NCBI GenBank assembly: GCA_036339465.1
Contig: JAYZAY010000062.1
Location: 64,001 to 128,000 of the forward strand
From: Myxococcota bacterium
GTDB lineage: Bacteria > Myxococcota > XYA12-FULL-58-9 > JABJBS01
Direction: 5' to 3'
Length of the DNA stretch: 64,000 nt
Every line of letters begins with the position of its first letter. Position 1 is the first letter of the stretch. Under the pieces are notes generated by a model. The model was not told the DNA's origin and ran no database searches. It saw nothing but the letters and a program-made list of their open reading frames with translations. Shown one piece after another: positions 21,720 to 57,925 of this stretch. Both the position numbers and the translations under genes were made by a program.

Positions 21720-21734
21720 CTTGGCGTCTACTTC

Positions 21735-22404: not shown

Positions 22405-24156
22405 TTGGATGCTATGGGGACCCTTTTTGCAATTATGGGGCTAGTTTCTCTCGTAGGTGCTGCTCCTCAGACCACATTGGAGTCTCAATGTCGTCTAAGG
22501 GACGCGCTTCCTCTTTTGGTTCAGGCCTTACCTCCCACCACGGAATTGGCAAGAAAGCATTGGGCCTCATTGGATGGGGAATCGGAGGTTATCGTTAATC
22601 TTAGGGCCCTACAAGAGTTTGGTTATCCATGGATAGCTTATGCGATGACGCATCTACTTTTGAGAGAGGATGGGGCTTCAGCCTGGGAGCCATCGAGCGA
22701 GGAGGAGCAATTGATTTTTCGTCTCCACACGGAAACCGGAAAATGGGGGGATTATATTGAGCTTTTGGTGGACCAAAAATTACGGGTCCCAGAAAGCCAC
22801 AAAGAAGAGTTTTTTATTCGAGAAGCGCGCTATTTACTAAGCTTTGCCACAGCAAACCATCAAGGCAGAGCTCGGGACCAGGTGGCGGGATTGATGGATT
22901 TTGGGAAATCTATGCAGGCTGTTTTACGGGTTGAAAATCCACAAGCCGAAAAACAAGAGGCTGGAAGCTCAGGGGGGCAAAAACCAGGGCTTGAGCAATT
23001 TGATATTGTTTTTGATTTTGATAATGGTCAGGGCTCTTTTGCTCAAGGAGCGTCGTCGGAGCTAGAGTTTTCGGAATCGCGATATATCAATGGCGATGGG
23101 CGAATCATCAACGAGGCTCGGTGGAGGAACGCATTAACGCCTATCGAAGTGATGGCCACCGTCCACACGATGGTGGCGCGCGCGAATCAGACGGGGCAAG
23201 GCCGGGTGAAGGCCTTCATGTTGAAGGCGATCGCCTCTTATCTCGCATCGAACCCAACCAATGCGATTAAGTATTTTGAGGAAGCCTTTGGGCGTTATGT
23301 ACAGTCAGGGGTGGCAGAAGATGATCGGCTTTTGAATTATTTTCGCGTGATGGTGGCGCGATTAAATTACGAGATCGGTTTGTTTGAAAAGAGTCTGAGT
23401 TGGTACGAAAAAGTTTACGAGCGCTCATCATGGCGGGAGACGGCTCGCCAGGAAAGGTTGTGGGCTTTGTTGCGACTGAATCGTTCGAGGGAGCTTCAAA
23501 AAGCCTTGAAAGAGTTTTCTGAAGAACGAGTTGGGGGCTTGGGTTTACTTGATTTGGGTATTGTCAGGGTATCAAACGCTATTGTTGATTGTAAATTGGC
23601 TACGGCACAACAACTTCTTGAATCCTATGTGAGGGACTCTTTTGCGTTGCTTCAGGAAGTGAAATCGGTGGTAAAGGTTGTCGGTGGGCGTGAGAGAGCA
23701 GGGGACTCTCGGGTTCTGTCTGTAAAATTGGATCAGATCATTCATTCGGTATTGATGGCGCCATCGGTGATTCGCATTCGGCGATCATTGCGGGAAATCG
23801 TGACCGAAATCAGTATGGCTCGGAAGGTTGATCGAGGAGCTCGCTCCATCGACCGCGTGTTGGATCTCTTGATGAGTGAGTCTGTTATGCAACAAAAAAT
23901 CTTGCAACAGGAGCTCCTAAAAAATTGGGAGCGCACCTATAAGGCCATCGACCAATATCTGGGCGTTGGGTTGGACCTGTTGGTGGTTTTGGACCGCCTC
24001 CAAAGTGGCGAAGGCAGTGGGGAGCTCATGGCGAGTTCGAAGAAAATTGAAAACCGAGGTGGAAGGGTTGAGGAAGTTATGGAAGACTTTGAACCGGATA
24101 AGGCTTTTCTAATGCGAACCATAGCGAACTGTCAGGAATTGAATATTGCCCGATGA
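22405..24156 (+). CDS. Divergent GltC-like secreted TPR protein
   Basis: Signal-peptide-like N-terminus. ARLNYEIGLFEKSLSWYEKV...ERLWA...VDC aligns with GRLMYGVANYDASSHYYGEI...ENAWS...VAC of the GltC at 49783; end FLMRTIANCQE vs YFQHTIRSECD. Confidence 0.65.
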   Translation: MDAMGTLFAIMGLVSLVGAAPQTTLESQCRLRDALPLLVQALPPTTELARKHWASLDGESEVIVNLRALQEFGYPWIAYAMTHLLLREDGASAWEPSSEEEQLIFRLHTETGKWGDYIELLVDQKLRVPESHKEEFFIREARYLLSFATANHQGRARDQVAGLMDFGKSMQAVLRVENPQAEKQEAGSSGGQKPGLEQFDIVFDFDNGQGSFAQGASSELEFSESRYINGDGRIINEARWRNALTPIEVMATVHTMVARANQTGQGRVKAFMLKAIASYLASNPTNAIKYFEEAFGRYVQSGVAEDDRLLNYFRVMVARLNYEIGLFEKSLSWYEKVYERSSWRETARQERLWALLRLNRSRELQKALKEFSEERVGGLGLLDLGIVRVSNAIVDCKLATAQQLLESYVRDSFALLQEVKSVVKVVGGRERAGDSRVLSVKLDQIIHSVLMAPSVIRIRRSLREIVTEISMARKVDRGARSIDRVLDLLMSESVMQQKILQQELLKNWERTYKAIDQYLGVGLDLLVVLDRLQSGEGSGELMASSKKIENRGGRVEEVMEDFEPDKAFLMRTIANCQELNIAR

Positions 24157-27100
24157 ACTATTTCTTTCATAGTTTGCATCGTGGTTTTGCCTACTTGTGT
24201 GGAGTTGTGGGTGTCGCATTGATTGCACTTCCCACAGCCTTTGCGGAGGAGGCGCCATTTTGGAAAACAAAATTGTTGGAGCGCAACAACCGCTTTGTTA
24301 CGAGTTATATTCAGTATTGGACCAATTCGGACGATAACCACCGACTTTATGATTTATTGGATGGGAGATTGGAAGAGGCGGTATGGCGTCATACCGAGTC
24401 TTCCAAAAAAGCGAGAAGAACCAGCCTTGACAGTGAATTGAAAGCGCTCAAGGAGCGTGAGCGATTGGTTGGGCAGGTGGATATTTGCGGTCATGGACTA
24501 GAGGCATCCTTGGGCATGGCTGAGGCTTATAAAGTTCTAAGTTTAGAACATATTAAGAAAGGCCGAACGACGTCGCCGTTGGGGCGGGAGTACCTAAATG
24601 AGTCTACCATCGTATATCTAAAGGAAGCAGAACGTATACTCGGAGGTATTGCTCAGCAGTGCTCCATGGGTGAACGCACCGCTTATGTTTGGCTGTCTTT
24701 GGGAGAGATTCACTTATTACTGCAAGAATATGACCAGGCAGCAGTCTATGTTCGAGATTTCATAACCGAATACCCTTATCTAGATGACAGTGAAAAAGCA
24801 TGGTTTTTTGCGGGTGAAATCTATTTCTCTAAACAAGATTTTTCAAAGGCGGCTCGGGCTTATGAACAAGTGTTGCGCTACGAAGGACCTATTTCAGCGT
24901 TGGCGCTTTATCGAATTGGTTTACTTCATGGATTTATGAAAAAACAGATGACGGCCATTCAATATTTCTCGAAAGCATACAATCTCATTGCAATAACCAA
25001 GAATCCCAATTCGAGTACGACACATATAGGTAGCCTTGAGATAAAAAGGGGAGTGCTAAATGCGATATGTGATGTTTTGATCAGAAAGGTCATTGATGGA
25101 GGGCACTCGGCAAAAGAACGGCTGGATTTGTGGACTTTGTTTCTTCGGGAGATTCAATCTGTGGACTTGCGGGAGGCTGTCGAACTCACGGTTTTATTTC
25201 GAATTCTGGACCGCCATCGTGGTGATCAGCTAAAGACATATTTCACGTTGCCTCAGATTGGTAAATCGGCTTCCATTGGAAGCCTGAGGCAATTTGTAGA
25301 AAATTTGTTCTTGTCCAAACCTTCGAGCGACTTTCACCGGCGTAAAGCGACAGATAATTCACATCACTTTATTAAACTCTTATGTGATGGGCGCGGAGAT
25401 GATGTCATCTTACGTGGTGTTCGTTGTCGCCGGGCTTGGAGGATCGGTTTCAGAAGTTATCTCAGGTACTTACATGGGCTTGGGGAATATCAAGGCCGTG
25501 ATGATTTTCGGGATTCTTTGGAGCGTGTTTTAATTCAGACCTACCGAGAAGTTCCTAAATCATGGAATCTCCTGCCGTGGTTGGTGACTGAGAGTCAATT
25601 GCTTGCCCGTGGGTTTGAAGTCCGAGATATTCCTCAGCCCCTCAAAGGGGCATTTCGTCACGTAGACTTAAGTGAATATTTTTATGAGTTGACGCACTGG
25701 TTGGGGTGGGTGAATCTTGAGCGGGGACGTCGATTATTGATGGCTTCAGAAGGTTTAGGCCATTCTGAGACGATTCATCTCAATATGTTTTGGGGGCGTC
25801 CAACTGAGGAGATAGGGGCCGAATCCCTCGTGAATTTTTTTCGCGCCAGTGGAAATCAGTGGTCACCCGGGCAGGCTATGGCGTTGTTTTCGACTTACAG
25901 TCTTGAGTTTGCTCGGTTGGGGGCGAAGTCGCTTGTCAGTGAATGGAGGAAAGGGGTTCAGGATGAATCTTGGTATGCTGCGGAAGGGCATGCCTGGGTT
26001 GGGTTGACCTTAGATACTTTGTGTGCAGAAAAACCCTCGCAGAAAATCACCCTTGAGGCATTTTTGAAGGGGTCAGCTTCGATCTCAAATGGGGCCTTAG
26101 AACCTGTCATGATTGGTTTTGGGGCGTTGCTTGAAAGGAGTGGTGGACCACTCTGGGCCCATAAATGGTGGTCTTCTATAGAAGAACGCTTGAGCTCAAG
26201 CGCCAAAGAAAATATCGTTGTCAAAATCGGAATGAATATTGTGTTGGCGACGGAGGCTTTGAAAAGGGGAGATTGGGAGCGAGCTGAAGAATCGTTGGTC
26301 CACATTATTACTTCGGAATTTAAGGCAGTAGAGGCGGTACCTGTGGGGGTTTTTGATCGAGCCAGACTAAAACTCGCTCAGACTAAGGAGCGGCAGGGCC
26401 AATATGTAGAGGGAGCACAGGCTTGGTTTAAGGTAGCAGGCCAAAACACTCTTTCCAATGACCGCTTATTAGGATTAAAGCGCGGTCTTGAAATAACCGT
26501 TCACCAACGTGATCCTCTTCTTCTAAAAAAGAGCACCGAGTTAAAACCTATTTGGAAGGCGCTTAATCTTCAGGCCACTGATTCACAGGACCCATGTGTT
26601 TGGGTAGGGGATTTAGTGAGTCAGTGGGCCAATGTTTCAAATGGTGGCCGCGCGGACTTGGAGCAGATGACGCTTCTTTCACAGCACGGCCACGCTTGTT
26701 ATCGCAATGTGTTGAGTTCGCCAGCAGTTTTGGTTGAACGTACCAAGGCATGTCAGGTCACGGCGAATTGGCGAGAGCTCATAGAGCATGGTCGTATCTA
26801 TGATGTTAATTACAAAGTATTGCTAGAGGATTTTGGCAAGTTTTCACGAAAACTCTTAAGCACGGCGTCCAAGGGAAATGTTGTGGCTTGTGAGGTGTTG
26901 TCGGGCTGGCAATCTTTGGACGAAGGGAGACTTTTGTTAAGGAAATTTGAGAGTCATACATTGAAGTTAAGAGCGAGTAAGAAAATCAACGTCGCAGCAA
27001 AACGATTTAGTGCGATAGTCCAGAAACTCTCAAAGTTATTTACCAAAGCCGTCGCGAAACTCGTTGAACTCGAAAATCATTCATCGGGTATTGTTCGGTA

Positions 27101-27365
27101 TTTGGCATTATCAGACATAGGGCGTCTCTATGCCACAATGGGAATAAGAATTGACCATTTGACCAACAGAGCCAGCAGTGCTTTGGAGAAGGAAGGTCAA
27201 AGTATATTTCATGAAATGGTGCAAGCACAAATGGCTGAACTTCGGAATCAAAAAGCCGTCTACATGCGGGCTGCTTCATCTCTTTTGGAACAACTTGGGC
27301 CTCGCGAAAAGTGGTTACGATTTGTCACGATTCCTCCCTTAGGCCGTTCTGCTTCGGATGGTTAA
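24153..27365 (+). CDS. Divergent GltD (AgmU)-like secreted TPR protein
   Basis: Signal peptide; 1070 aa vs 1090 aa for the GltD at 51341. AWFFAGEIYF...KAARAY...ALYRIG matches AWLQLGEHYF...KAVKAY...ALYKLA; C-terminal EQLGPREKWL matches YELGLYNDWL. Confidence 0.7.
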   Translation: MNYFFHSLHRGFAYLCGVVGVALIALPTAFAEEAPFWKTKLLERNNRFVTSYIQYWTNSDDNHRLYDLLDGRLEEAVWRHTESSKKARRTSLDSELKALKERERLVGQVDICGHGLEASLGMAEAYKVLSLEHIKKGRTTSPLGREYLNESTIVYLKEAERILGGIAQQCSMGERTAYVWLSLGEIHLLLQEYDQAAVYVRDFITEYPYLDDSEKAWFFAGEIYFSKQDFSKAARAYEQVLRYEGPISALALYRIGLLHGFMKKQMTAIQYFSKAYNLIAITKNPNSSTTHIGSLEIKRGVLNAICDVLIRKVIDGGHSAKERLDLWTLFLREIQSVDLREAVELTVLFRILDRHRGDQLKTYFTLPQIGKSASIGSLRQFVENLFLSKPSSDFHRRKATDNSHHFIKLLCDGRGDDVILRGVRCRRAWRIGFRSYLRYLHGLGEYQGRDDFRDSLERVLIQTYREVPKSWNLLPWLVTESQLLARGFEVRDIPQPLKGAFRHVDLSEYFYELTHWLGWVNLERGRRLLMASEGLGHSETIHLNMFWGRPTEEIGAESLVNFFRASGNQWSPGQAMALFSTYSLEFARLGAKSLVSEWRKGVQDESWYAAEGHAWVGLTLDTLCAEKPSQKITLEAFLKGSASISNGALEPVMIGFGALLERSGGPLWAHKWWSSIEERLSSSAKENIVVKIGMNIVLATEALKRGDWERAEESLVHIITSEFKAVEAVPVGVFDRARLKLAQTKERQGQYVEGAQAWFKVAGQNTLSNDRLLGLKRGLEITVHQRDPLLLKKSTELKPIWKALNLQATDSQDPCVWVGDLVSQWANVSNGGRADLEQMTLLSQHGHACYRNVLSSPAVLVERTKACQVTANWRELIEHGRIYDVNYKVLLEDFGKFSRKLLSTASKGNVVACEVLSGWQSLDEGRLLLRKFESHTLKLRASKKINVAAKRFSAIVQKLSKLFTKAVAKLVELENHSSGIVRYLALSDIGRLYATMGIRIDHLTNRASSALEKEGQSIFHEMVQAQMAELRNQKAVYMRAASSLLEQLGPREKWLRFVTIPPLGRSASDG

Positions 27366-27482
27366 GTTCAAAAATTACGGATGCTTATGCGAGCTTCTCT
27401 GTGAGGAAGGACTTCTACCTACCTTTGACCACTTCCGTGACTACCCGCTTTTGGTTACGCTAGTAGGAGTAGAACAAATTCG

Positions 27483-27764
27483 GTGGTTCAGCCCATGATG
27501 AGAGGTTTGATTGTTGCTATTGTCCTGATGGGCACAGTTGGGCCTGTACATGCCGACACCGGGAAATTGTCGCCGAAATCCGCAGCTCCAGTGATAAAAC
27601 TTGAGGGCTTTGAGGTCCGGGTGGATGGGGCTCTACCCATGTCATTGTATTTGGAGCGACGGGCGAATCAACGATTGGCACTTCTCTTGAGAGTTCGGGT
27701 CAGATTTAGAAATGAGTTAATTCAGAGTTTTGAAATGTTCTTGGACCGATATGACAGTTTTTGA
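27483..27764 (+). CDS. Divergent GltF-like small secreted protein
   Basis: VIKLEGFEVRVDGALPMSLYLERR...LLRVRVRFRNEL aligns with VIDLSAAVIEGDLTRPEGSYIVNR...LIQERKDFLDEL; AGGAG upstream; directly precedes a GltG-like gene. Confidence 0.65.
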   Translation: MVQPMMRGLIVAIVLMGTVGPVHADTGKLSPKSAAPVIKLEGFEVRVDGALPMSLYLERRANQRLALLLRVRVRFRNELIQSFEMFLDRYDSF

Positions 27765-29343
27765 AGAGCTAGAGCTATTCCTCGCCGTTTATTCCGAGGG
27801 GAATGTTAGAGAGTACCGTTTTGCTTCGGGACTCAACCCACGGATTCGTCTCGGTGTGGGGTATGGCAATGAGTTAGAGCTTGTGGGTAACCGAATTGGT
27901 CGAGTTCATGCTGTTTTGGAAGTAGGTGGCGGTACAATCTCTTTGGTCGATATGGGGACGATACTGGGGACTAAGGTTAATGGTCTTTTGGTGGAGCGGG
28001 TGCTTTTGAATCATGGAGATGAGATAGGTATTGCCGATGTGGTGATTCGGTGTGGGATCAATGAACGTATCATTACCTCTGAAGCTACGACGAATAACGG
28101 TCAAGATATGGGCTTTGGTTCAGAGTCGGGTGGGAATGAAGATGTCGAAAAATATCCTGTGGTTGATCTGCAATTGTTGTCGGGTGGGGTGGCTGTTCAA
28201 TATGAGTGTTTGTCTATGGGGGAAACCTTTAGGATTGGTTCGGGGAAAAGGTCCGATTTCCTTTGGCCTATTACCAATTTTGAGGAAACAGATTTTTCCT
28301 TGATAGAGGGGGATGGCCAAGAAAAATCAGTGCTTAAGCTTTTACCTGGAATGGTGGGGGTCTGTAATCGTCAGGGGGGATCGCATCGGATCGATAATCA
28401 ATATTTCCAGCATGGCTCAGAAATTTCGATACCCCTGAACCCTCAAGATTTTGGGAGCCTACTTTTGGAGGGTCTAGAAATCCGGTACCGGGTAGAGCTG
28501 TTGCCCGCCTTGACATCCATCGGATTCACGACGCGTGTTTTTTCGTATTTCTCTCAGATTTTGGTGGCCAGTTTGGTGTTCCACCTCATCTTCATTTTAG
28601 GTCTTATGAGGATTCCGATTTCTGACCCATTTCCCGATCATGGTTTTGTACAACCCCAGGACAGATTTGCGCGGTTATTGGTTTCAAACGAGACATTTCA
28701 ATCCCCAGCGCATGTAAAATTCGGGTCTCATGTGTTGACGAAGAAAAACCGAGTTCAGTTGCAGAAATTAGACCTAAAAAAATTGGTGAAAAAGAGGCGA
28801 AAGGAGGCCAAGAAATATCTGGGACGCGCGATGCATCGATTGAGTCATTCGATTACAAGACCATTGTCTGCATTGGGTTCCTTGGAAAGTGCAGGCGTAG
28901 CGGCTATGGGCTTTGAGCCAAGTCATGGGGGTGGCAAAGCATCCTATCTTGTGGTTGAGGATTTAGATAAAACGGAGGCATTTTCATTGGTCTCTGTTGT
29001 GGGTGCGGATGCTGATGGTGGACGAGGCGGTTTAAGTGAGATGAGTTTAACACAACGATATCAAAAGACCGTTCAAAGACAAGTTCACCGATACCTAGAT
29101 GATATTCAGCGTTGCTATATTACCTTGAAGCCGGTCCATGGTGACAGCCACGAAGAGATCAGTTTGGTATGGGAGATATCTCAGAGTGGTAAAGTAAAGG
29201 GAAAACCAAAGATTCATGGTATGTATAAAGGGTTCCAGCGGGTTAGACACTGTATGCAAACAGCCATTAAGGCTTGGCAGTTTGAAAGCCATGCTTTGGG
29301 CAAGAGTATAAGAGTAGAATATACGTTCCGATTGACGGGTTAA
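27751..29343 (+). CDS. Divergent GltG (PglI)-like protein: FHA-like domain, TM helix, TonB-C-like domain
   Basis: HAVLE...DMG...GTKVNG...GDEI (FHA fold); TM SLVFHLIFIL; DRFARLLV matches NRFAQLIL of the GltG at 56392; IQRCY...CM...AWQF...VEYTFRL. Confidence 0.8.
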   Translation: MTVFEELELFLAVYSEGNVREYRFASGLNPRIRLGVGYGNELELVGNRIGRVHAVLEVGGGTISLVDMGTILGTKVNGLLVERVLLNHGDEIGIADVVIRCGINERIITSEATTNNGQDMGFGSESGGNEDVEKYPVVDLQLLSGGVAVQYECLSMGETFRIGSGKRSDFLWPITNFEETDFSLIEGDGQEKSVLKLLPGMVGVCNRQGGSHRIDNQYFQHGSEISIPLNPQDFGSLLLEGLEIRYRVELLPALTSIGFTTRVFSYFSQILVASLVFHLIFILGLMRIPISDPFPDHGFVQPQDRFARLLVSNETFQSPAHVKFGSHVLTKKNRVQLQKLDLKKLVKKRRKEAKKYLGRAMHRLSHSITRPLSALGSLESAGVAAMGFEPSHGGGKASYLVVEDLDKTEAFSLVSVVGADADGGRGGLSEMSLTQRYQKTVQRQVHRYLDDIQRCYITLKPVHGDSHEEISLVWEISQSGKVKGKPKIHGMYKGFQRVRHCMQTAIKAWQFESHALGKSIRVEYTFRLTG

Positions 29344-29376
29344 TTTTTGTGTTTTTCTCTAAGATCTTAATATATT

Positions 29377-32300
29377 GTGCCGTGGAGAAATGCCAAAACG
29401 ATGAGTGAGATCCTAGATAACCTAGTTCAGGGATTGGTAGGAGGAGAAGGAATTTCCGACCTTCTCACGAACACTGAAAAACATTTGAAGGCGATTGCAT
29501 CCCTAGAGCGATCTCCTGCAGCGATCAACCAAGAGATGAAAACTCAACTTGCGACTCAAGTTTTGAAGGATTTTCACTCTTTGCCGCTTCCAACTGAGAT
29601 CTTTACCTATTGGGTGGGGGTTTTGATCGATGCGGGCACTTTAGGCCCAAAACAAAGTTCATGTCTCGAAAATTGGGCGGAAGAAAAAGGTTACTTGGAA
29701 TTCGGAGTCATTATTCGAGAGCTTGCAATACGTGGGGAAAAAGAAAACACGAAGAAAAACACACTGCTGGCAAACTTGGGAAACTATTCGGTGGAGATGC
29801 TCAATGATCCGGTCTTTGCCCTGACCACGTTGGATAGAATTCAGCAGGATGGGGTTTTTGATTCAAATCTTCTAGAACTTCGATTTTCCCTGCTTGCGAC
29901 CCTCGGAAGATACAAAAAGATTAGTGAAACCCTGCTTGGGATGCATGAGCGGGGACAAGGGCCGGATTTGGTCACCAAGTGGTTGGTCAAGGTTTTGGAA
30001 AAGATTGCAGGCCAACCGAGATATTTTTCGATTGTTCGGAAACTGGAAAGGGGTTTTGCAACTGGTGAGCTACCCAGCGTTGAATTACCCACTGAACTGC
30101 AAAGTAAATTGGAATATGCGAAGGTTTCAGAGCGTGGCTGGAAAGAGCGGCTTTTGGAACTCTATGAAAAAGCAAATCGGGCCGAAAGTCACGACGCCTA
30201 TTCGGCCGGAAAATATTGGAGCCAGGTAGCGGAATTACAGTTTGCTTTCGGAAGAGATTTAGAGGCGGCGCTTACCACAATTCGTAAGGCGATTCGATTG
30301 GCACCTGAGTATGGAGCCGCAATTGAACTGACTTCGTCAATTTATGAAGCTTCAGGGCAGTACAGTGTTTTAGTTTCGCATTTAGAGGAGCTCTCTAGAG
30401 AATACGATTCAGAAGTCTCGAAAGCGGAGATTCTATGGCGTTGTTATGAAATCTTACTTATCGATCTAAAAAACGAAGCCGGTGCATACCGTCTCCTTCG
30501 TTCCTTAAATAAGGCAAACACCTCCCATCGAGCCTGTTCTTTACATCTAACCAGTTATTATCTGCGCCACGGCCAGATAGCTGAAGCGGCGACGTGTCTC
30601 GGCAATGTCTTGACAGCGGTTGTCGACGTCGAAACTCGGGAGGGTGCTTTTTTTGGGATCTGGGCCATATCAAGAAGTGAGGGTGTGGATTTTAGTGACT
30701 TCGCCGATGCACTGCCTAACTTGTTTAATGAAAATCCACAGTATGGTTATTTTGCTGCCCTAGAAGGGTTTTATCGAGATTCGCAAAATCACAAAGCATG
30801 GACGGAACTTCTTTTTGTTGGGCTTCAGCGTTTTGAAAGCCCGATTCAAAGAAAGTTGGTGGCGCTTAAATTGATGGCGGCCTGTGAGCGTCAAGGGGAG
30901 GATGCAGAACTCAAATATACTGCTTATCTAGCTCAGGTAGAAGAGGGGATTTCCACAGAAGATCTGGCCGCCTTCGTGAAGGTGGCTCTCGAGGTGGGTA
31001 AGGGGGAGAACTCGATTACGCGCCTATTGAAGGCGTTGCCAATTTGGAAAGACGAACTAGAGCAGAAACGCTTATTGACGGCGATTCTCGATATTAGCAT
31101 GGGTTCTGGTTTTGTCGCGGAGCCCTCTCGTCGGGCATGTGATCTGATGTTTGCTCTTGATGGGCATGCAGGGGAAGCCAAGGTTACCGATTATTATGTT
31201 ATGTGTGCTAAAGTAGAGAACGATTTTTCTTCATGGGCGAATCAGAAATTAGGGGAAGTGAAAACAGAGCCTCAGAAGCGTAGTCTTCTGAAGGCGCTAT
31301 TGACGATATCCAATCGAGAGGATGAGGAAAGCCATAAACAATTGCTCTTACGTTTGTTAAGGTCGGGCGGCGCATTCGAGGAAGCGTTGTTGCCTTTGCT
31401 TGAGCTTTCTGTCCGAATGGACCAATTGAACGACTTTGAGGGGTTGGTTGATGAGTCGGTTGAGCGAAACTATATCACTTGCTCAAATGAAGAGTTCTAT
31501 TTGAAAATCGCTCAAGGTCTAGAACGTCATGGAGCTTCCGAACAAATTATTCTCAAATATTGCGACCGAGCGGCCAACGTTGCTGGGGTGAATGCTGAAT
31601 TGGCGCTCTTGATGGAAGGCCTCAGTGAGTTGAAAAATAGATTGGACCTGGTGGAAAAGGTTTCAATCTATCTGAGAGACAATGATGAAGCCGAGCGAAT
31701 GATTCGATTGATTCGTGGCTCGATTTACTATCATGGGATTTCAACTTTTCCTCTTCAGTTGCTTGAACTCTTGGTTGAGGTGGAGTTGCAAAAAGAAGTT
31801 TATTCTATTGATACGGTCGAGTGGTTGGAAGAAAGGCTTGGAGGGAGTGATAATTTTGAACGTACGCTGAAATTTTTGATTGCTGAGGCCAAGGAGCGCC
31901 CCCTTGCACGGATTGTCCATGATAAACTTCGGAGTATTGCCGCAAAGCTGACGGACCCTAGGCAGATTTTTCTTTGCTTGGAGGAAGAGGTAACCGTTGC
32001 TTCTCGATTGGACTCCGGTGGTAGGTACTGGAATTCTGTGGTAGATTATTGTCTCTTTGGATTTGGTGAACAAGGCGTTTGGCCCCCAATCCTTTGGACC
32101 CTAGATTCCTATCTCGAAAAAAATGAACCAGAGCGAGTCTCTCAAGAACTTTATGATTTATTTGATGCTAGAGATGATATGAACGATGACTTGTTGATTC
32201 ACTTGACTTCAAGTATCTCTACATCAGCATCGAATATAGATTATCGAATTGAATTTAGCCTCTCGTGTTATTCCCGAGCCACTGAAAACGTTGCCTACCT

Positions 32301-35300: not shown

Positions 35301-38300
35301 GCAGGTGGCAAAAAATTGGTCCGAGTTATTTGAGTTATATACTGGGTGGTTCCGGGTGAATGACAATCGTCAAGATTCAGAATGTCTTGGTGAGTTTGTG
35401 GAACTTCTTTTGCAATATGAAAAAGACTGGTCGATTTTGATTCAACTTCTCGTGGAATATTCCACCAGTTTACCCGTCGCATCTCTGATTTCTTTATCCG
35501 AGTCAATTGGAGAACGATTTGGACGAACTGAGTCTTTCGATTATCTGATGCATATTCTTGGGGACTCAAGAGTTAGTTACGACTTAAAGCTAGAACTGGG
35601 TCGAAGATTGACCGCGACCCTTATGGTCGATCCTTTTTTGCGAGAACGACTTGATGAAGTAAGTGTCTTGTTTGAGATGAACCTTCGGGGGGAGATTGAA
35701 ACGCGTATTCTCAAGGGAGAATACCTATATTATGAAGGAAAACTTTCTGATTGGGTGAGTTTTACACAGAGCTTTTTTATTCAGGCGGATTGGGCAATAC
35801 GAGAAATCGTCATAGGAAGAGTCGTCAGACATTGGAATGCTTGGGCTCCCGAATTGGTCGAAGGTGATAATCTCGATTTTTGTATTACTGAGAAGCTTCC
35901 GGAAGATATTTTACAAAGGCTGTTTGACGGATGGTCTCTACAGGAGGTGTCGGCCGTAGCGGGAAGATTTTGGGAGCGCTTTCTCTTGGTGAATAACCCA
36001 TCATCTTTGCTTGTGAGGGGTTCTTCGCACCAGCGTATAAAAATAGGGACGTCTTTTTTTCTGGCGGGTCTTGTCAGTGAGCCCGTGGTGGTCATCTTAG
36101 AGGGCTTACTTGACGATGGGGATCTGCATGCGGATGCTTTCCATATACTGAGGGCATATTACCATGATTCGAAAAGTTGGGAGCGGTTGACTGGTGCGGT
36201 TGAGAAAGTCTTGGTCCATCTATCGCGCGATGACAGGAACCATCTACTTTTGGAAATCTTACCCTTTCTATACAGTGAAATGACTTGTTTGCAGGTTGCG
36301 GAGCGTTGGTCATTATTGATTCTCGACGGCTCCAAGAACATTACCTTCGAAAACGCAAAATTGATGTTGGATATTGGTTTGGCAGGAGAAAGCGGTCGAC
36401 TTATCGCCGACAAACTCCGGGTCGCGTGTGCGACACTGGATGATCCCAAGCTGGCTGCAGAACTAATGCAACTTTTGGGGATGTTCTATTTTGAGCACCT
36501 CAATGCTTATGAACAAGCGGAGACTTGCTTGCTCAATGCTATCGGGAAAGACTCTTTTCCCAAGGAGGTTGTTGATGGACTGGTAGCGATCGCCGAGCGA
36601 CAACATCGTTTTGATAAGATTGTTGGTGTCTTGAAAGGTTATATTAAATCTCTTTCCGAGACCGATGAGTTCTATTTTGATACGTGCTTTTCTTTGGGCA
36701 AGGTTTGGGCCTACGATATTGGTGACCCTCACCGAGCACGTGAAGTATTTGAAAAGCTCTCCACGCTTCAACCTAACAATGTTTCGGTTCAGGTTGAACT
36801 CTTTCGGGTTTCTTTGGGGGGAAAAGATTGGGCTGCTTTAAAAAAATCAGGGCTTCAATTAGTGGTTTCTGATGTTGGTTATGATATTTTGAATGAAGTG
36901 GTAGGGGCGCTTCTGGATTTAGATGACCATTTTATAGATGAGGAGGTTGCCCATTTAGAAGAGGCTTTCCGGCGTCTGGCCCTCGGAACAATCGATGATT
37001 TTCTTTGGGGAGGTATCGTGGGTTTCTTATCAAAACATGAGAGATTCGAAAGCCTCTATGATTTGTATCTCCAGAGAGCGTTGGCCGTCGACAACAAAGG
37101 TATTCGCTGTGAATTATGGTTGAGTGCGGCCGAAATATCCGAACAATTTCTAGGGTCGCAATATGACGCAATTACATGCCTTGAGAGGGTTTTGGAGCAA
37201 GAAGCACGGTCGGAAAAAGCCTTCGTGTCCCTTGAAGGGATTCTCTCGGCTCAATGCGAGTGGGAAAAGTTAATTGATGTTTTATACCGCTACATGGCTG
37301 CGGTGGATGAACTAGAGTTGAAAGCAGGCATCCTTGTCAAAATTGGAAAAATTTATCACCAGTCCCTTGGGCGAGGCGATTTGGCGGAAAAAGCATTTCA
37401 AGAGGCACGAAATTTAGAACCAGATAGTGTTCAAGCACTTGCTGCTCTAGGGCGGTTATATGAGCGTAGTGGTAATTGGTTTCAGGCTCTGAGTATGTTG
37501 GAGCAGCAAGCCGAGTTGGAGAAAGAGAATGCATCTAAGGCGAAGGTTTTTGTGCGGATCGGGCAGATTTATTTAGAGATGCTATTGGATGAGACGAGTG
37601 CTGTGAGATATTTGCGACAAGCACTTGTTTGGGACAATGCCAGCGTTGAATCTTTGGATATGCTCAAGAGTATTGCGGAGAAAAACGAAAATTGGGGTGA
37701 CTTTTTGCAATATATTTCTCGTATTCGGGGCCTTCTTGAGGATCCTGAAGATGAGTACGAGGTTTTGTTGGAGATAGGTGACCATTTTGCCTCGAGATTT
37801 GGTGATTTGGCTAAAGCGAAACATTATTACTCGGAAGCGATAGCCTTAGTTTTGGAGAATTCGGATGCTCGGTGGAAAAGAACGCAATGCATGTTAGAGC
37901 AAGAAGAATGGGGTGATGCGTGCAATGAGCTGGGGGAGTTACTCGAGACAGATTGGAACGATGCTTCTGCCTCTCAGAGGGAATTGTGGCGCCAAGAAAA
38001 GATTCGTTGTCTAGAGAAGTTGGGGGAATATTCTGATGCTGTGACTGAGTTACGGCATGGTATTGCAGTTAATAATAATAACTTTTTCTACTGGGAAACT
38101 TTGGCTCGCTGTCTTTATAAACTAGGGAATTACCAAGAGGCTTGTGACGCCTTGGAGGCTTTTTTGGAGAGGGGAGCAAGAGAGATCCCAAATACAGAAA
38201 CATTGAATCTGTGTGTTACGATAGGAAGTCTCCATTTGGAGCAGGGAAGATCCCAGAACGCCCAAAGAATTCTGTGTAAGGCATATGAACTTGAATCTGA

Positions 38301-39978
38301 AGATTATCAGGTGATTAAGCTTTACGAAGAGGCTTGTAGGCAGGAATTAGAATGGGATGTTGTGGCGAAGTTGGCGATGATTCGGCTGGAGATGGCGAGT
38401 GGGGAGGAAAGAAATGATGCTGCCCACAAGCTTATGGAGAGTTTTGAAAATAAAGGTGTTTCGTTCAATGAGATCTCCGTCCACTTGAATGATTTTGAAG
38501 AATCGGGAGAGTGTGCAGAGTCCGTTTTTGTGAGACATGCGCGGTTGGCGAAGGAGGAAGCCCTGATCGAAGAAAGTGTCTTGATCCTCGACTCCGCTAG
38601 AAACTTTCGAAATGATACCACGGTTCAATTTGGCGCGGAATTGGAACTCTCTCGATTGTTGCGAAACCAGTTTGGGAATGAAGTCGATGCTTTTTCGATC
38701 CTAGAGGAGGCACTGGTGAGTAGACCCAATAACCCTGCCATCTTAGACGAGTTTGAGAAATTTGTGGAAAAAACGGGGAGATGGGAATCCTTGGAGAGGA
38801 TCTATGGTTTGGTCCTATCGACGAGTGAGCCGGAACAAGAAATCAATCGGATTGTTCGGCAGTCGCTTGCGGAATTGGAGGCACATGTCTTTGGCCGAAT
38901 CGGTAATGCGATTGAGCACTATGAGACATTGAATCGAGTCCAAGGGTTGGATGCGGTTGGGCGTAGTCGCTTATTTGAATTATATATGAACAAGGGCGTT
39001 GAGGCGGGTTCTGCATTGAAAGTGCATATTGAGGCACTCCCAAGCGGCGACCTACTTGACCAGAACCTACGTCAGTTAGCTATGGCTGCTCGGCAGGTGG
39101 GCGCGAGGAATGTGTTGTTTGATGCGTTGGATTCACTTCGTGCTTTGGGTGAAGCGACGAGCGAAGAGCTTGTGGAAGTAAAAGCCATGAGCAGTGCTTC
39201 GAGTGAAGGGGTGGGTTTAGTGGAGGCGCAATCGCGGCAGATACTGCCAGTGCATTTGGAGCGGGTGAGCCATGTTTTACGGCAACTCTATTTAACGGGG
39301 GGGGGGATGTTTTGGGACCGAGGTCTTTCAGTCGGAAATGTTTTTGGTGAAGTTGTTCGGATACGTCGTGGCCCGCTTTACTCAGTCCTCAAGGATCTCG
39401 TGAAGGGAACTTCATTTGAAGGGACCCAACTTTGGATGAAGAGGGGAGGGATGGATGCGCCCACGGTACTTATGAATGAGGAGCAGGTGGTTTTGATTGG
39501 TTCGGAGCATCCTTTTAACCAAGGAGCAGAAATTGAAGCACTTAGGTTCGGTTTATCAAGAGAACTGATGTATTTGCGTCCAGATTCGATTTTGTTGAAG
39601 AAATTCAGTTCTCAGAGCCTCTTAGGTATTCTGACGGCATTGTGGGTTGCGCTTGGCGGTTCTGAGGAAGCTGATGCTTGGCCCAGGGAATCCTTGGAGT
39701 CTTGGGTGGTCGCATTTCGAAAGCTTGGGGCCGAGGAGCGTGAGAAGCTCCGGGGAAGCCTCGAAAGTGTGCGCTTGGTCTTAGAATACCCGGATCGATT
39801 GAGTGAGTATGCCGATTGGCTCGAAAAGGCGGCGGGACGTGCGGCTTATCTTTGTTGTGGTTCGAGGGGGGCTGCGACCCATTCCATTGAGATGGGTATG
39901 GAAACCACCAATGGATTGCCTATCCACACCCTCAAACGTGATTTGGTTCTATATTCGATGCTCCCCGACCATAAGTAG
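29377..39978 (+). CDS. gltI: Giant TPR protein, GltI (AgmK)-like, 3533 aa
   Basis: All-helical TPR-like repeats (e.g. ALAALGRLYERSGNWFQALSML, LEGILSAQCEWEKLIDVL); no signal peptide; lies between gltG-like and gltJ-like genes, as gltI does in Myxococcus. Confidence 0.65.
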   Translation: MPWRNAKTMSEILDNLVQGLVGGEGISDLLTNTEKHLKAIASLERSPAAINQEMKTQLATQVLKDFHSLPLPTEIFTYWVGVLIDAGTLGPKQSSCLENWAEEKGYLEFGVIIRELAIRGEKENTKKNTLLANLGNYSVEMLNDPVFALTTLDRIQQDGVFDSNLLELRFSLLATLGRYKKISETLLGMHERGQGPDLVTKWLVKVLEKIAGQPRYFSIVRKLERGFATGELPSVELPTELQSKLEYAKVSERGWKERLLELYEKANRAESHDAYSAGKYWSQVAELQFAFGRDLEAALTTIRKAIRLAPEYGAAIELTSSIYEASGQYSVLVSHLEELSREYDSEVSKAEILWRCYEILLIDLKNEAGAYRLLRSLNKANTSHRACSLHLTSYYLRHGQIAEAATCLGNVLTAVVDVETREGAFFGIWAISRSEGVDFSDFADALPNLFNENPQYGYFAALEGFYRDSQNHKAWTELLFVGLQRFESPIQRKLVALKLMAACERQGEDAELKYTAYLAQVEEGISTEDLAAFVKVALEVGKGENSITRLLKALPIWKDELEQKRLLTAILDISMGSGFVAEPSRRACDLMFALDGHAGEAKVTDYYVMCAKVENDFSSWANQKLGEVKTEPQKRSLLKALLTISNREDEESHKQLLLRLLRSGGAFEEALLPLLELSVRMDQLNDFEGLVDESVERNYITCSNEEFYLKIAQGLERHGASEQIILKYCDRAANVAGVNAELALLMEGLSELKNRLDLVEKVSIYLRDNDEAERMIRLIRGSIYYHGISTFPLQLLELLVEVELQKEVYSIDTVEWLEERLGGSDNFERTLKFLIAEAKERPLARIVHDKLRSIAAKLTDPRQIFLCLEEEVTVASRLDSGGRYWNSVVDYCLFGFGEQGVWPPILWTLDSYLEKNEPERVSQELYDLFDARDDMNDDLLIHLTSSISTSASNIDYRIEFSLSCYSRATENVAYLDDAILNIKRHSSVKTQYFWWEKIADFELPSEHAYEVLLSLALASPDESRDMKERHLYRALGHKPNGYVAYIELTSLLVQNRSYDDLVSLAQKEKTHCFDSWVERSLYYFESIELTNKSLPCLGEVLNDCIGHGNIGALDFQRVELILRGQIENHQDYALFETVFESYLASSRERMGLEVLVQLVDSMESAAREQWLFRGWERCGTKEELEEIRVWCALQWLLLFERYSEPLVEDIYTLGKKPNYRNDVCLTFGRLSNVPTRKLRERETFALYGAELHLMSGQAESALRILDGEKREALSSKKRLKSILTHTMDDKLHPDDFYEYAASYVTLAFLASENREDMSSNFVERIAREERFKTLLAPLKYSLLEDYVANGGTASHIGIEYLNVLKDRQEWKIISAWGRERNLDDYSYEQRIRILLILVEAAQWLGTIESEEECLEHLLSIAPENTSVADEFMLFMESGLIHEKVLSYLERYLCKEGRIDEYKRVLIRKYELTEEPSAKLLILKEIAELASKLGEAEFFSRVALEALELSEYEPSSRSWLFEHAKQGCLAQSLCVEIERCLLGKSGRVRRELRWLSADIYDEILQLPEASVEELEKLRQEEGNDLYTLERLELRYRSLDAPRELALVLERKLEFVVTQASKLNILKEIFAICFEKTNDFDGAREALWSIYWERSEDSTYFDTLENLLVRQERWANLVSIYEEERIRLGLFSGEVSEERFLKPNLRLIETYLFKLGDRKRAFGIIADLPLDGESGRGIFEILTREPRPYYVDTLSWLVQYYEVTGNQQKRINSLNDLIVSTESCRRKAHWMSALSDIYLIDKEELSLGFDYCIRAWATEPTNLKFIRRGIRFAREVDCFEPLLGALEGNEAIVVVLEETELEIIFQLFEIALEIKTNFEVIKVALKRLEGAQLTPRISHLLCDWYLKNENLNSWLDLKRELIRLEPDVQKAALLGVEIVERISGDDSLEAIAQPFLSQWLVKNPIERSILDFCVSVLQVAKNWSELFELYTGWFRVNDNRQDSECLGEFVELLLQYEKDWSILIQLLVEYSTSLPVASLISLSESIGERFGRTESFDYLMHILGDSRVSYDLKLELGRRLTATLMVDPFLRERLDEVSVLFEMNLRGEIETRILKGEYLYYEGKLSDWVSFTQSFFIQADWAIREIVIGRVVRHWNAWAPELVEGDNLDFCITEKLPEDILQRLFDGWSLQEVSAVAGRFWERFLLVNNPSSLLVRGSSHQRIKIGTSFFLAGLVSEPVVVILEGLLDDGDLHADAFHILRAYYHDSKSWERLTGAVEKVLVHLSRDDRNHLLLEILPFLYSEMTCLQVAERWSLLILDGSKNITFENAKLMLDIGLAGESGRLIADKLRVACATLDDPKLAAELMQLLGMFYFEHLNAYEQAETCLLNAIGKDSFPKEVVDGLVAIAERQHRFDKIVGVLKGYIKSLSETDEFYFDTCFSLGKVWAYDIGDPHRAREVFEKLSTLQPNNVSVQVELFRVSLGGKDWAALKKSGLQLVVSDVGYDILNEVVGALLDLDDHFIDEEVAHLEEAFRRLALGTIDDFLWGGIVGFLSKHERFESLYDLYLQRALAVDNKGIRCELWLSAAEISEQFLGSQYDAITCLERVLEQEARSEKAFVSLEGILSAQCEWEKLIDVLYRYMAAVDELELKAGILVKIGKIYHQSLGRGDLAEKAFQEARNLEPDSVQALAALGRLYERSGNWFQALSMLEQQAELEKENASKAKVFVRIGQIYLEMLLDETSAVRYLRQALVWDNASVESLDMLKSIAEKNENWGDFLQYISRIRGLLEDPEDEYEVLLEIGDHFASRFGDLAKAKHYYSEAIALVLENSDARWKRTQCMLEQEEWGDACNELGELLETDWNDASASQRELWRQEKIRCLEKLGEYSDAVTELRHGIAVNNNNFFYWETLARCLYKLGNYQEACDALEAFLERGAREIPNTETLNLCVTIGSLHLEQGRSQNAQRILCKAYELESEDYQVIKLYEEACRQELEWDVVAKLAMIRLEMASGEERNDAAHKLMESFENKGVSFNEISVHLNDFEESGECAESVFVRHARLAKEEALIEESVLILDSARNFRNDTTVQFGAELELSRLLRNQFGNEVDAFSILEEALVSRPNNPAILDEFEKFVEKTGRWESLERIYGLVLSTSEPEQEINRIVRQSLAELEAHVFGRIGNAIEHYETLNRVQGLDAVGRSRLFELYMNKGVEAGSALKVHIEALPSGDLLDQNLRQLAMAARQVGARNVLFDALDSLRALGEATSEELVEVKAMSSASSEGVGLVEAQSRQILPVHLERVSHVLRQLYLTGGGMFWDRGLSVGNVFGEVVRIRRGPLYSVLKDLVKGTSFEGTQLWMKRGGMDAPTVLMNEEQVVLIGSEHPFNQGAEIEALRFGLSRELMYLRPDSILLKKFSSQSLLGILTALWVALGGSEEADAWPRESLESWVVAFRKLGAEEREKLRGSLESVRLVLEYPDRLSEYADWLEKAAGRAAYLCCGSRGAATHSIEMGMETTNGLPIHTLKRDLVLYSMLPDHK

Positions 39979-40045
39979 AAAATTTTTGATTCCTGTTCCA
40001 CTTCTAATGTGCCCATAGAATCGACTATCACTATGTTTTTCGGGT

Positions 40046-41368
40046 ATGCTCTCTATGCATATGGAAATCCAATGCCCTAAATGCCAGACTCTCTTTTTAC
40101 TTGATGGCGACGTGGTCAATCAGCTACCCGTAGAGTTGCGTTGTAAGCATTGCTCGGCCCTGCTGGGGGTTGACCCAAAAGGCCTGGTTGCTCTTAGAGA
40201 TGACCTTGGCTCAGCCCGTTACTCGCTGCCGCGGGAAGAGTGGTGGTTATGGGTGGAGGGTGAGCGAGAAGGCCCTTATTCGCTGGAGGATTTAAAAGGG
40301 CAGGTAGGACGGGGACCATCCGGAAGCGATATCCTGGTTTTTGGTCCAGGTTTTGAGGAATGGAAGGTTTGTTTAGAGGTGCCTGAACTTTCGTCGTTGT
40401 TTAAGGGGGACGACAATGCTCGGGATTCGATTTTATCGAAAGAAAATGGCAAGCTTGAGGGTTTCATGCAGGCCAAGGAAATTACTGGTGATTTATGCGA
40501 GCCGGTATTGGGATTCAGTCCTCGGGCAGGAGAGGTATTGAAACGAAGTCGGTCGGTCGTGGGTGAAGCAAATTCTTCCCAAGAGCCGGTTTTCGAGTCA
40601 ATGAAATTTTTTGATTACGGTCAGATGGAATTGCCGGCACCATCCGAAGAAGAAGTATTGCGTCCCCGTGGAGAAACAGGTGGCTTGGTGATTGGGGTGG
40701 CTCTTCTTTTCGTCGTTGTAGGGGGATTGTTTTTGTGGGGACTTCAATTGGAGGAGGAAAAGGTCAGTGAATTTGGTCCGAGGAAATCGGATCAGACTTC
40801 TCAGACGCTGGATAATTTGGTGGTTCCGAATTGGAAACTGCGAGAATTTGCAAAGCCTCAAATCGAACCTCCAAAATCGAGTGAAGAGTTCTCCGGAGAT
40901 GCTGGGAGTTTGCGAGGACGTACTGATGCGTCCGACGAGGTCGGTCTGAGGAGACCAAAGGTAAGACACAAGAAAAGGATTTCTAAACGAACACAAAAAA
41001 AAGACGATATTTTGTCGGCAGGTGCGAAATCTGGGGATATTTTCTCGGTGGTGGAACGGCTCAAAACGAGGTTGACCTCAGGAGAGATCCAAGCAGAATT
41101 TCGTATGAAACGGGACGACTTACGTCCTTGTATTGCATCGGCGATTGCGAACGAGGAAGTGACTCCCGGGAGACATACAATCTATATTTCGGCGCGTATC
41201 AAACCTTCGGGTGAGGTTGCAGATACGAAAATGATTGAACCCTATTACTTATTGTCTACGTCTTTACCTGAGTGTTTGGCAAATACGATGCGTCGTTTGA
41301 AATTTGAACCATCATTGCGGGGCGGTGTGGTGGAACGGTTAATGATCCCATTTCGTTATCGGCCGTGA
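40046..41368 (+). CDS. gltJ: GltJ (AgmX)-like protein: zinc ribbon, GYF_2, TM helix, TonB-C-like domain
   Basis: CPKC...RCKHC; WWLWVEGEREGPYS...GFEEW...VPEL; TM IGVALLFVVVGGLFLW; C-terminal LRPCI...IKPSGEV...CL...LKF...IPFRY. Confidence 0.78.
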   Translation: MLSMHMEIQCPKCQTLFLLDGDVVNQLPVELRCKHCSALLGVDPKGLVALRDDLGSARYSLPREEWWLWVEGEREGPYSLEDLKGQVGRGPSGSDILVFGPGFEEWKVCLEVPELSSLFKGDDNARDSILSKENGKLEGFMQAKEITGDLCEPVLGFSPRAGEVLKRSRSVVGEANSSQEPVFESMKFFDYGQMELPAPSEEEVLRPRGETGGLVIGVALLFVVVGGLFLWGLQLEEEKVSEFGPRKSDQTSQTLDNLVVPNWKLREFAKPQIEPPKSSEEFSGDAGSLRGRTDASDEVGLRRPKVRHKKRISKRTQKKDDILSAGAKSGDIFSVVERLKTRLTSGEIQAEFRMKRDDLRPCIASAIANEEVTPGRHTIYISARIKPSGEVADTKMIEPYYLLSTSLPECLANTMRRLKFEPSLRGGVVERLMIPFRYRP

Positions 41369-41385
41369 GTAGTGTGAGAGAATGA

Positions 41386-42345
41386 ATGGCTCGTTGTGTC
41401 GTCAATATGTCTAAAGTTATGAAAAGATTTACTTGCACACTTTTCCTTATGGTTTGTGGATTAGGGGGGGGGAGTTGCGCCAGCTCTGATACCATCGCAA
41501 ACCTGTCTCCAGAACCTCGTTCCGCAGATTTCCCGTTTTGGTTGGCTCGGGATATTCAGGGTGGGGATTGGTGTGGTTTGGGGGCGGCGGGACCTGGTTA
41601 TGTGGGCTCTCCTTATCCAAAGGCAAAGGCGAAACAACGGGCGATTCATGATCTGGCGGGTGCCATTGAGACGGCCGTGTCCGAGGCTATGGTGGCAGTG
41701 CAGAGAGATCAAAGGACGATGATCGATTCTGCATCTCATTTGGAGGTAGCAGAGGAATTACTGCGGCGCGTGAGTCAGGAAGCGCAGGTAGATTATTGGT
41801 TTGATGGTTCTGGCTGGGGACCCTTCAGAAGTGAGGATTTTGTTTACGCAAGGGCATGTTTGCCCGTCGGTCACCCGCTTCTTCGGAAACTCAGCTCAGA
41901 ATTTAATAGCGAAGCACAGCAACGATTGCGGGGGATCCCCACGCCGGAAAAACAACCTCCATGGGTAGACGAAAGTGATCCGAGGAATCTTAAAGCTTTC
42001 AAATGTGCGGTGGGGTTTTCGCAGCCAACTTTTTTTCCTGACGCAAGTTTGGTGAACGTGATTGAGGATGTTCGGCGCCAGTTAAGCCTAGGACTGGAAA
42101 CACTGGTTTCTGAATATCAAGAGGAGCATCTAGCGGGGGCGTTCACTTCCCATGAAGTGATTACAGTGGCAACGAGTGAGGCGGTCTCGCGGGGAGCTCG
42201 TATTCTACAGTACTGGTTTGATCTTGATGGGATCGGCCCTCAAGGAACCAAGCGATCTACCTATGGATATGGATGTGTGCATACTTCTCGATTGCTGAAA
42301 AGTGTTACGGATATCTTGGGCTCGAAGAACCAGGGGGAAAACTAA
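41386..42345 (+). CDS. Lipoprotein with two tandem LPP20-like repeats
   Basis: Lipobox GGSC; duplicated unit C(G/A)(L/V)G...P...L...(I/L)ET.VSE...YWFD..G.GP...Y...C. Confidence 0.65.
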   Translation: MARCVVNMSKVMKRFTCTLFLMVCGLGGGSCASSDTIANLSPEPRSADFPFWLARDIQGGDWCGLGAAGPGYVGSPYPKAKAKQRAIHDLAGAIETAVSEAMVAVQRDQRTMIDSASHLEVAEELLRRVSQEAQVDYWFDGSGWGPFRSEDFVYARACLPVGHPLLRKLSSEFNSEAQQRLRGIPTPEKQPPWVDESDPRNLKAFKCAVGFSQPTFFPDASLVNVIEDVRRQLSLGLETLVSEYQEEHLAGAFTSHEVITVATSEAVSRGARILQYWFDLDGIGPQGTKRSTYGYGCVHTSRLLKSVTDILGSKNQGEN

Positions 42346-57918: not shown

Positions 57919-57925
57919 AAGACCA

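Follow-up and report, generated by a model that had tools for sequence, protein, structure and literature searches.

What is left of a gliding machine once its outer-membrane parts are gone, and is such a remainder a new apparatus, a dying one or something on the way between? The question is raised by a stretch of 64,000 nucleotides (hereafter the window) from a Myxococcota bacterium (GTDB lineage Bacteria; Myxococcota; XYA12-FULL-58-9; JABJBS01; assembly GCA_036339465.1, contig JAYZAY010000062.1, positions 64,001 to 128,000), in which seven adjacent genes remotely resemble the Glt trans-envelope transducer of Myxococcus xanthus. An earlier note, made from the sequence alone, had read them as a hidden second Glt-like operon, fused, rearranged and very fast-evolving, that might have been neofunctionalised. 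We find the operon to be orthologous to the gliding transducer operon of Myxococcus and to stand at its ancestral locus, with the outer-membrane barrels GltA, GltB and GltH and the lipoprotein GltE deleted. What is new here is an eroded variant of a known gliding system, less exotic than the first reading. The window's operon copies are marked by primes (gltC' and so on); the genome carrying it, G000, is a 4.17-Mb assembly (92.8% complete) in which all deletion junctions are internal to the window's contig.

The seven genes are co-oriented and closely spaced, as first described, with intervals of -35 to 117 bp and zero internal stops. General family models name only two of the products: Pfam and NCBIfam recognise an FHA domain in GltG' (GltG model 80 bits) and a zinc ribbon and GYF_2 domain in GltJ' (GltJ model 34 bits), report GltD' and GltI' as generic tetratricopeptide-repeat (TPR) proteins, and give no useful match for GltC', GltF' or the lipoprotein that closes the operon. 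All of the operon proteins lie far below the NCBIfam cut-offs (80 of 650 bits for GltG, 34 of 450 for GltJ, none for GltC). Four had been aligned by eye to the copies in the conserved operon downstream, and BLAST upholds that likeness for GltG' (E 2e-7) but not for GltC' (E 1.3), GltD' (E 0.009) or GltF' (E 0.032). The identities themselves stood up to profiles built from relatives' sequences only, with the window's sequences excluded, and run with hmmsearch over 15,628 open reading frames (ORFs) of the genome (GltC 4e-9, GltD 5e-9, GltF 4e-4, GltG 3e-38, GltI 1e-158, GltJ 9e-29). Probabilities from hhalign were 96.8 for C, 95.1 for D, 94.5 for F, 99.7 for G and 99.0 for J, and the controls gave 0.1 for reversed sequence, 0.4-66 for unrelated TPR proteins and 93.9 for a true GltC paralogue on contig C76. 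When gliding-type profiles were compared with those of the neighbouring operon, which runs from gltA to gltH types (hereafter the A-H operon), C', D', F' and G' all preferred the gliding type; GltI' and GltJ', from which the gliding type had originally been argued, were both confirmed by profiles, and GltJ' also by its domain architecture.

The likeness is unevenly distributed along the proteins. In GltD', the profile match is confined to residues 148-273, within an N-terminal region (104-275) that matches gliding-type GltD including two cysteines; the remainder is helical and unalignable, and neither residues 280-1070 nor the two ends of GltC' give a significant match on their own. The assignment of GltD' rests on this N-terminal match and on operon position, and the ESM Atlas adds leads only, in the form of large TPR clusters with Bdellovibrionota as the commonest taxon. 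GltC' keeps an order-specific DFG-type insert and two cysteines; its AlphaFold model is all-helical with a mean pLDDT of 63 (below 50 in the tail, 537-583), and a fold search with it returned only generic TPR solenoids (best TM 0.3) from a set that contains no Glt structure. GltF' retains gliding-type residues in its C-terminal half. GltG' consists of an FHA domain, a second FHA-like region, a transmembrane (TM) helix at 274-297, a shortened and eroded Gly-rich linker and a TonB-C-like tail, and it is the sole FHA-bearing protein among the three intact GltG copies examined. An S-x3-H pattern in its TM helix, which resembles the TonB coupling motif, was dropped as a candidate when it proved missing in two full-length orthologues. 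GltI' matches the ortholog profile in three blocks over its whole length, in register +2 and at ~20-23% identity. GltJ' has the ZnR-GYF-TM-TonB-C architecture first described, with a zinc ribbon at 6-38 (4/4 Cys), GYF_2 at 66-115, a TM helix at 210-235 and a TonB-C-like tail; its best PDB matches are the GYF and ZnR domains of GltJ (7z3c, 7zok), and it is the only GYF_2 protein found in the genome. Signal-like N-termini, TM helices and zinc ligands are all retained across the operon.

The seventh gene is a different matter. Its product belongs to an LPP20-like lipoprotein family that is order-wide (15/22 genomes, 34-42% identity) and usually located away from gltJ, so the idea that it is a Glt subunit or ancestral operon part falls. 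It follows gltJ in G000 and G001 only, and lies elsewhere in the other 9 of 11 loci examined, often near what we take to be a MoxR/DUF58-like cluster.

Relatives in the same order explain where the operon came from. They carry the FHA-bearing gltG within a single operon, B-A-C-D-E-F-G-H-I-J, flanked as in the window by TPR and DUF192 genes on one side and by a phosphorylase, an unnamed membrane protein and a sigma-54 regulator on the other; the complete B-to-J operon is seen in G008:C14, in G017:C7 it runs to the contig end, and pieces occur elsewhere. Outgroups G022, G027 and G038 likewise hold C to J together, and a grouping of the gltC and gltD-J clusters was already noted for Anaeromyxobacter (PMC3169522). 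Since the window shares its flanks and gene order with the relatives' full operons, nothing in it has been fused or rearranged: the single operon is the ancestral state, and the order is unchanged save for deletions. Nor is it a second copy of its conserved neighbour, which is a separate A-H paralogue. The per-gene trees bear this out in part, FastTree placing C' and G' in the gliding clade and D' only at its base. In fixed-topology approximately unbiased (AU) tests, in which 21-22 of 35-39 rows were used, placement with the A-H type was rejected for G' (p 0.013, 0.022) and nearly so for C' (0.07, 0.055); they did not place D' on either side. Three order-specific features are shared with the gliding orthologues, namely the DFG-type insert of C', the tail of J' and the two cysteines of D'. 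The order's gliding clade is joined in turn by the bona fide Glt proteins of G029. GltC, GltJ and CglB of this genome pass their NCBIfam cut-offs, as does the GltC of G017, and such phylum members point to Myxococcota as the phylum of G000.

The absence of gltE, gltH and gltA/B, correctly noticed at the outset, reflects clean deletions: no gliding-type copies were found by profiles in the assembly, and the three junction gaps (Table 1) hold no remnants. Profile matches for GltA, GltB and GltH in the genome are the A-H paralogues only, and the best GltE matches are two paralogues and generic TPR proteins. Two losses within the retained proteins accompany these deletions. A C-terminal motif, W-x4-E-x-W-x2-E-L-G, is the most conserved part of GltC and is found in the other GltC sequences (38/39; 30 by the strict pattern, 8 as visible variants); it is gone in C' and also absent from the copy of G002, a genome of another genus, and these are the two copies without gltB/A. 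A published AlphaFold model has GltC docked beneath GltA/B/H and GltF as a bridge between GltC, D and G, with the tails of GltG and GltJ bound to GltD and their FHA and GYF domains, respectively, bound to GltI (PMC11761067); in M. xanthus, GltC is reported not to be stably expressed without GltA/B (PMC9946355). The lost motif is most likely a barrel-docking site. In addition, the linker between the ZnR and GYF domains of J' is cut to ~17 residues, and is also short in G003. The GltJ linker of M. xanthus binds MglA-GTP through residues about 86-103 (PMC11135422), and what GltJ' has lost would, by analogy, be this MglA-binding linker. Judged by the contacts of the AlphaFold model, the retained genes are an inner, mutually connected set, and what was lost is the outer platform together with GltE.

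The impression of very fast evolution was also right. Patristic distances to G017 are 5.1 (C), 6.0 (D), 4.7 (F), 4.2 (G), 3.7 (I) and 3.5 (J), against 1.0-2.2 for the same proteins of the family members G001, G003 and G005, so that the operon proteins evolve ~2-4 times faster than their orthologues. Control genes do not share this speed (0.7-2.0 in G000 vs 0.6-1.8), and the A-H proteins and flanking genes are just 1.1-1.4 times longer. The global identity of C' and D' to their orthologues (20-23%) equals the reversed-sequence baseline (22-26%); a preferential retention of deeply conserved columns, considered as a further signal, was rejected when a reversed-sequence control gave an equal one. 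The reading frames have nevertheless been maintained, with 0 stops in 6248 codons. Simulated neutral change introduces 7.9 stops on average once 1% of nucleotides have diverged, with no fewer than 4 in any of 20 runs, and 223 by the time protein identity has fallen to 33%. Because these codons hold no stop despite fast divergence, neutral decay is excluded for the operon. Population variants from four seawater runs of four studies, covering window positions 16358-36357 (ending within gltI'), point the same way for GltD': among 18 variant places, five in gltD' are synonymous and one changes Glu to Asp (p 0.003 vs 77% expected non-synonymous), indicating purifying selection. The flanking RapA gene has four synonymous variants and the flanking TPR gene one of each kind, none fall in C', F' or G', and no indel or stop variant occurs over the covered stretches. 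Selection still acts on frame, length, export signals and a few domains, with most residues free to drift, and the operon is presumably still expressed. No close relatives came to light: no other genome of the genus was found, a metagenome scan yielded two distant loci, protein searches with D' found no close or intermediate relative, and among 1.84 billion representatives searched with G' only G' itself exceeded 70 bits.

Other members of the order have lost parts of the same operon. Wherever the junction is seen in the family (5/5 genomes), G is followed by I with no gltH between them. B and A persist in G001, G003 and G004, whose proteins are moderately fast. At the same locus, G002 has C-D-E-F-G and gltI, all open and equally diverged. 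It lacks gltB/A as well as the GltC motif, and no gltJ was seen in its assembly. The G000 and G002 operons share 22-27% global identity with each other (reversed baseline 22-26%), and G002 keeps the gltE that G000 lacks. A tree of 2835 columns (5000 replicates, fewer than advised; one G001 marker taken from G004 of the same genus) groups G000, G001 and G002 and rejects G000 and G002 as sisters (p-AU 0.0013), and an mreB tree places G000 with G001 and G004. Because G001 keeps B, A and E while that sisterhood is rejected, the losses of gltB/A in G000 and G002 were probably separate. Further along, and in other families, G011 and G016 have only gltI (shortened to 2500 aa) and gltJ left at the locus, and in the 100% complete genome of G012 a 420-aa gltG is the sole operon remnant; this gene (L079:6447-7709, G012:C110) has an FHA domain, a TM helix and a tail with almost no periplasmic linker between them. 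No gliding-type GltD was found in any of these three, and the A-H operon stays conserved in all reduced genomes. We found no published description of a glt operon that is both barrel-less and hyper-divergent, nor of this reduction series, most subscription journals lying outside our coverage. Partial or absent A-motility genes have been described for uncultured Myxococcota in general (10.64898/2026.07.10.737566; 10.1101/2021.07.06.451402), in reports whose supplements may list such cases.

Motor, switch and adhesin genes elsewhere in the genome bear on what the remainder might do. A third cluster, split over contigs C76 and C25, consists of mglB-mglA followed by gltC-D-E-F-aglR-Q-S-gltG types; mglB-mglA lie directly upstream of this core cluster (C76:10980-14556 and C25:1-11722), and the contig ends overlap with small differences. 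MglA is a putative assignment from a sequence motif, and MglB one from its position. The genome's one AglR-type gene is inside the C25 part, and no MotA/ExbB gene lies in the window (none among 13 genome matches). Agl-type motors number 0-1 in the family genomes and G012 and 2-5 in the other 15 order genomes, a pattern that is suggestive of the loss of a second motor but not clean. No candidate for the adhesin CglB (NF033757) was found in this 92.8% complete assembly, the cut-off of the model being exceeded in one of five genomes searched, and none of 70 receiver matches is an AglZ-like protein, that is, a receiver with a long coiled coil. The mreB model is over its cut-off. This single mreB lies in a rod-shape cluster (C59:90402-96630), and the second, highly conserved mreB clade of most order genomes was not found here.

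Putting these observations together, we give a probability of roughly 55% to the reading that the operon is a barrel-less remnant, uncoupled from the outer membrane and persisting as a weakly selected scaffold between cytoplasm and periplasm, on a path of reduction that has been taken repeatedly. What remains would be the inner chassis: GltI in the cytoplasm, GltG and GltJ as membrane-crossing arms, and a periplasmic shaft of D, F and C, with the GltG FHA and GltJ GYF domains predicted to bind GltI and the TonB-like tails predicted to dock on the shaft. Without barrels, adhesin and MglA switch, no force should reach a surface adhesin, and this would not be a gliding machine. Most likely GltI, GltJ and GltG would form the core of a tether or positioning scaffold that still has some residual use, possibly driven by the genome's single Agl-type motor, and the operon would then be an intermediate on the path of reduction followed by several lineages of the order. 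Several observations weigh against this reading. Two genera have kept barrel-less operons open through saturation, a long time for a passing stage. Branch lengths above 4 are themselves saturated. The gltI' variants (four non-synonymous, one synonymous) are as expected under neutrality; four of the five fall within the first 18 codons, one further variant lies upstream of the likely start, and all variants are few, clustered and at depths below 7. The runs listed as carrying the stretch include no RNA runs. The clade taken as AglR occurs in 6/22 order genomes and is missing also from G008, G009 and G017, which have full operons, and CglB is below its cut-off in full-operon G017 as well; the order's operon is accordingly gliding-type by descent and only putatively so in function. 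The flagellar genes of G000 fit the reading, but flagella do not track the erosion, G008 having FliG beside a full operon and G012 a remnant and no flagellin, and flagella as its cause were set aside for lack of a clean correlation.

The first alternative, which we regard as unlikely though well short of negligible, is the neofunctionalised machine proposed initially: a new, stable job in the envelope, such as moving or holding periplasmic or cell-wall cargo, with the speed of change being adaptive or compensatory. Frames that stay open at noise-level identity in two genera, a GltI' register held over 3500 residues, the retention of export signals, zinc ligands and cysteine pairs, the convergent loss of the same GltC motif and the mainly synonymous D' variants would all suit such a machine. 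However, the G000 and G002 operons share no clear new features, are no more alike than either is to ordinary orthologues and differ in gltE, no intermediate relatives of G' or D' were found, three further genomes have lost nearly everything, and the sole added gene, for the lipoprotein, is present also beside the intact operon of G001. It is the piecewise loss in relatives that leads us to favour a reduced remnant over neofunctionalisation. A bolder version, which we likewise regard as unlikely though not negligible, is that the gliding transducer came loose from the outer membrane twice independently within this marine family and took up new work as a barrel-free, MglA-independent machine operating entirely between cytoplasm and periplasm, with GltI as a ruler of constant length whose surface turns over. 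Were this true, GltI-GltJ would have a separate function that predates or outlives gliding, as the genomes with only gltI and gltJ suggest.

It is rather improbable, in our judgement, that the A-H operon supplies A, B, H and GltE to a hybrid with I', J' and G' that glides or moves surface cargo. The four missing genes do have intact paralogues 5.5 kb away, G011 and G016 retain exactly the two genes that the A-H operon lacks, and in M. xanthus a single AglRQS motor works for the Glt and Nfs systems alike (PMC3858216). Yet C' lacks the motif kept by every barrel-associated GltC, the A-H copies included. The A-H-type GltG (window 56392-57918) has no N-terminal FHA in 12/12 order sequences, while 3/5 outgroup copies keep one, so that it could not bind GltI as modelled (PMC11761067); the paralogous clusters of M. 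xanthus are reported unable to replace gliding genes (PMC3169522), and neither CglB nor AglZ was found in G000.

That the operon is simply dead, selection having ended so recently that stops have yet to appear, is very unlikely. The gltI' variants fit neutrality, and there is no match for most of D' or for either end of C', but 1% nucleotide change should already have produced ~8 stops where there are none, the four runs show no stop or indel variant over the covered stretches, the D' variants are mostly synonymous, and codon use lies in the ordinary range, at the 12th-63rd percentile of the genome (codon usage and skew are otherwise uninformative). Least credible of all is a fused and rearranged duplicate of the conserved neighbour or a foreign insert, since the proximity, the shared order of C, D, F and G and the operon's GC (43-49% vs 48.9% for the genome) are outweighed by the conserved flanks, the GltC insert, GltJ tail and GltD cysteines that tie it to the inherited gliding operon, the AU test, and relatives that carry both operons, often linked.

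Table 1. Features of the operon and its surroundings, in window positions.
Feature	Position	Strand	Description
Left synteny block	16358..22292		RapA (+), TPR membrane protein (-), DUF192 (-)
Gap DUF192/gltC'	22293..22404		112 bp; site of gltB and gltA in relatives; clean deletion
gltC'	22405..24156	+	583 aa; eroded GltC of the gliding type; TPR core after a signal-like N-terminus
gltD'	24153..27365	+	1070 aa; eroded GltD with signal peptide
Gap gltD'/gltF'	27366..27482		117 bp; site of gltE in relatives; clean deletion
gltF'	27483..27764	+	93 aa; secreted bridging protein
gltG'	27730..29343	+	537 aa; likely start 27751
Gap gltG'/gltI'	29344..29376		33 bp; site of gltH outside G000's family; deletion
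gltI'	29377..39978	+	3533 aa; likely start 29401; giant cytoplasmic TPR scaffold
gltJ'	40046..41368	+	440 aa
LPP20-like lipoprotein	41386..42345	+	319 aa
Right synteny block	42342..46161	-	phosphorylase (MTAP-like), unnamed putative outer-membrane protein, sigma-54 response regulator
A-H paralogous operon (comparator)	47907..58645	+	B, A, C, D, E, F, G (no N-terminal FHA), H; Nfs layout

Several further observations concern the surroundings of the operon and related genes elsewhere. A promoter scan upstream of gltC' found none, with 1.0 expected by chance. The stretch is present in 20 listed runs from 10 studies, 19 of them labelled marine or seawater, and three contain at least half of its words. 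The unnamed 452-aa secreted barrel-like protein (43247-44605, -), which matches neither Pfam nor NCBIfam models, is a conserved neighbour of gltJ and the phosphorylase throughout the order and was not found in G002 or G012. At 61651-63441 the window encodes a 596-aa TPR/coiled-coil lipoprotein with a weak N-terminal match to TraC, an outer-membrane-exchange lipoprotein (E 5e-8, far below cut-off). On contig C99 (11912-13689, -), a broken extra A-H-type gltG in two ORFs with in-frame stops and no glt neighbours is a true pseudogene, in contrast to the open operon. C67:82536-93920 (-) encodes a giant GltI-like TPR protein of 3794 aa and, after it, a TPR ORF of 388 aa; together with proteins from G017:C30 and G001:C173 the giant forms a clade of its own, an unnamed family of GltI paralogues. 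Contig C18 (1-14000) carries a flagellar basal-body/motor operon (FliG by Pfam, the rest named from sequence starts), with several flagellins elsewhere; flagellin occurs in 14/22 order genomes, with up to 15 copies in G016.

Studies of the Agl-Glt system have treated it as a machine built up by adding parts, and here is a natural series of its disassembly: minus H, minus B/A/E, I and J only, G only. The GltC motif, gone from both barrel-less lineages, can be tested in M. xanthus as a candidate site of barrel docking, and the late survival of GltI and GltJ points to a non-gliding function of the least understood subunits. Surveys of gene presence and absence miss such operons, C' having no Pfam or NCBIfam match at the usual thresholds, and may count the A-H paralogue as gliding genes.

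Compared with known systems, the window's operon shares C, D and G with the motor-containing core complex (gltC, D, E, G and aglR, Q, S; Luciano 2011) and likewise has no barrels; unlike that complex, it has neither motor genes nor gltE, and it does have gltI and gltJ. The true core cluster of this genome is the one on C76/C25, beside mglB-mglA. As in Nfs (nfsA-H), gltC stands in one operon with gltD-G, the subunits are paralogous, and a motor could be shared as it is in M. xanthus; in content the two are the reverse of each other, Nfs having A, B, E and H and not I or J (PMC3858216). The Nfs layout, A to H with no I or J, is that of the neighbouring operon and not of the window's gliding operon. 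GltD and NfsD of M. xanthus are 28% identical and GltG and NfsG 35%, which exceeds the identity of the window's operon to its own orthologues; the A-H proteins, for their part, are 49-72% identical to theirs. Against M. xanthus Glt (G1, gltD-J; G2, gltK-B-A-C), the window's operon differs in lacking GltA, B, H and E, the GltC C-terminal motif and the GltJ MglA-binding linker, in belonging to a genome with no CglB or AglZ found, and in being one operon, the ancestral state, rather than two clusters. It agrees with M. xanthus in having orthologues of C, D, F, G, I and J with an unchanged order, in an FHA-TM-TonB-C GltG, a ZnR-GYF-TM-TonB-C GltJ and a giant TPR GltI, and in the presence of a putative mglA and of mreB in the genome.

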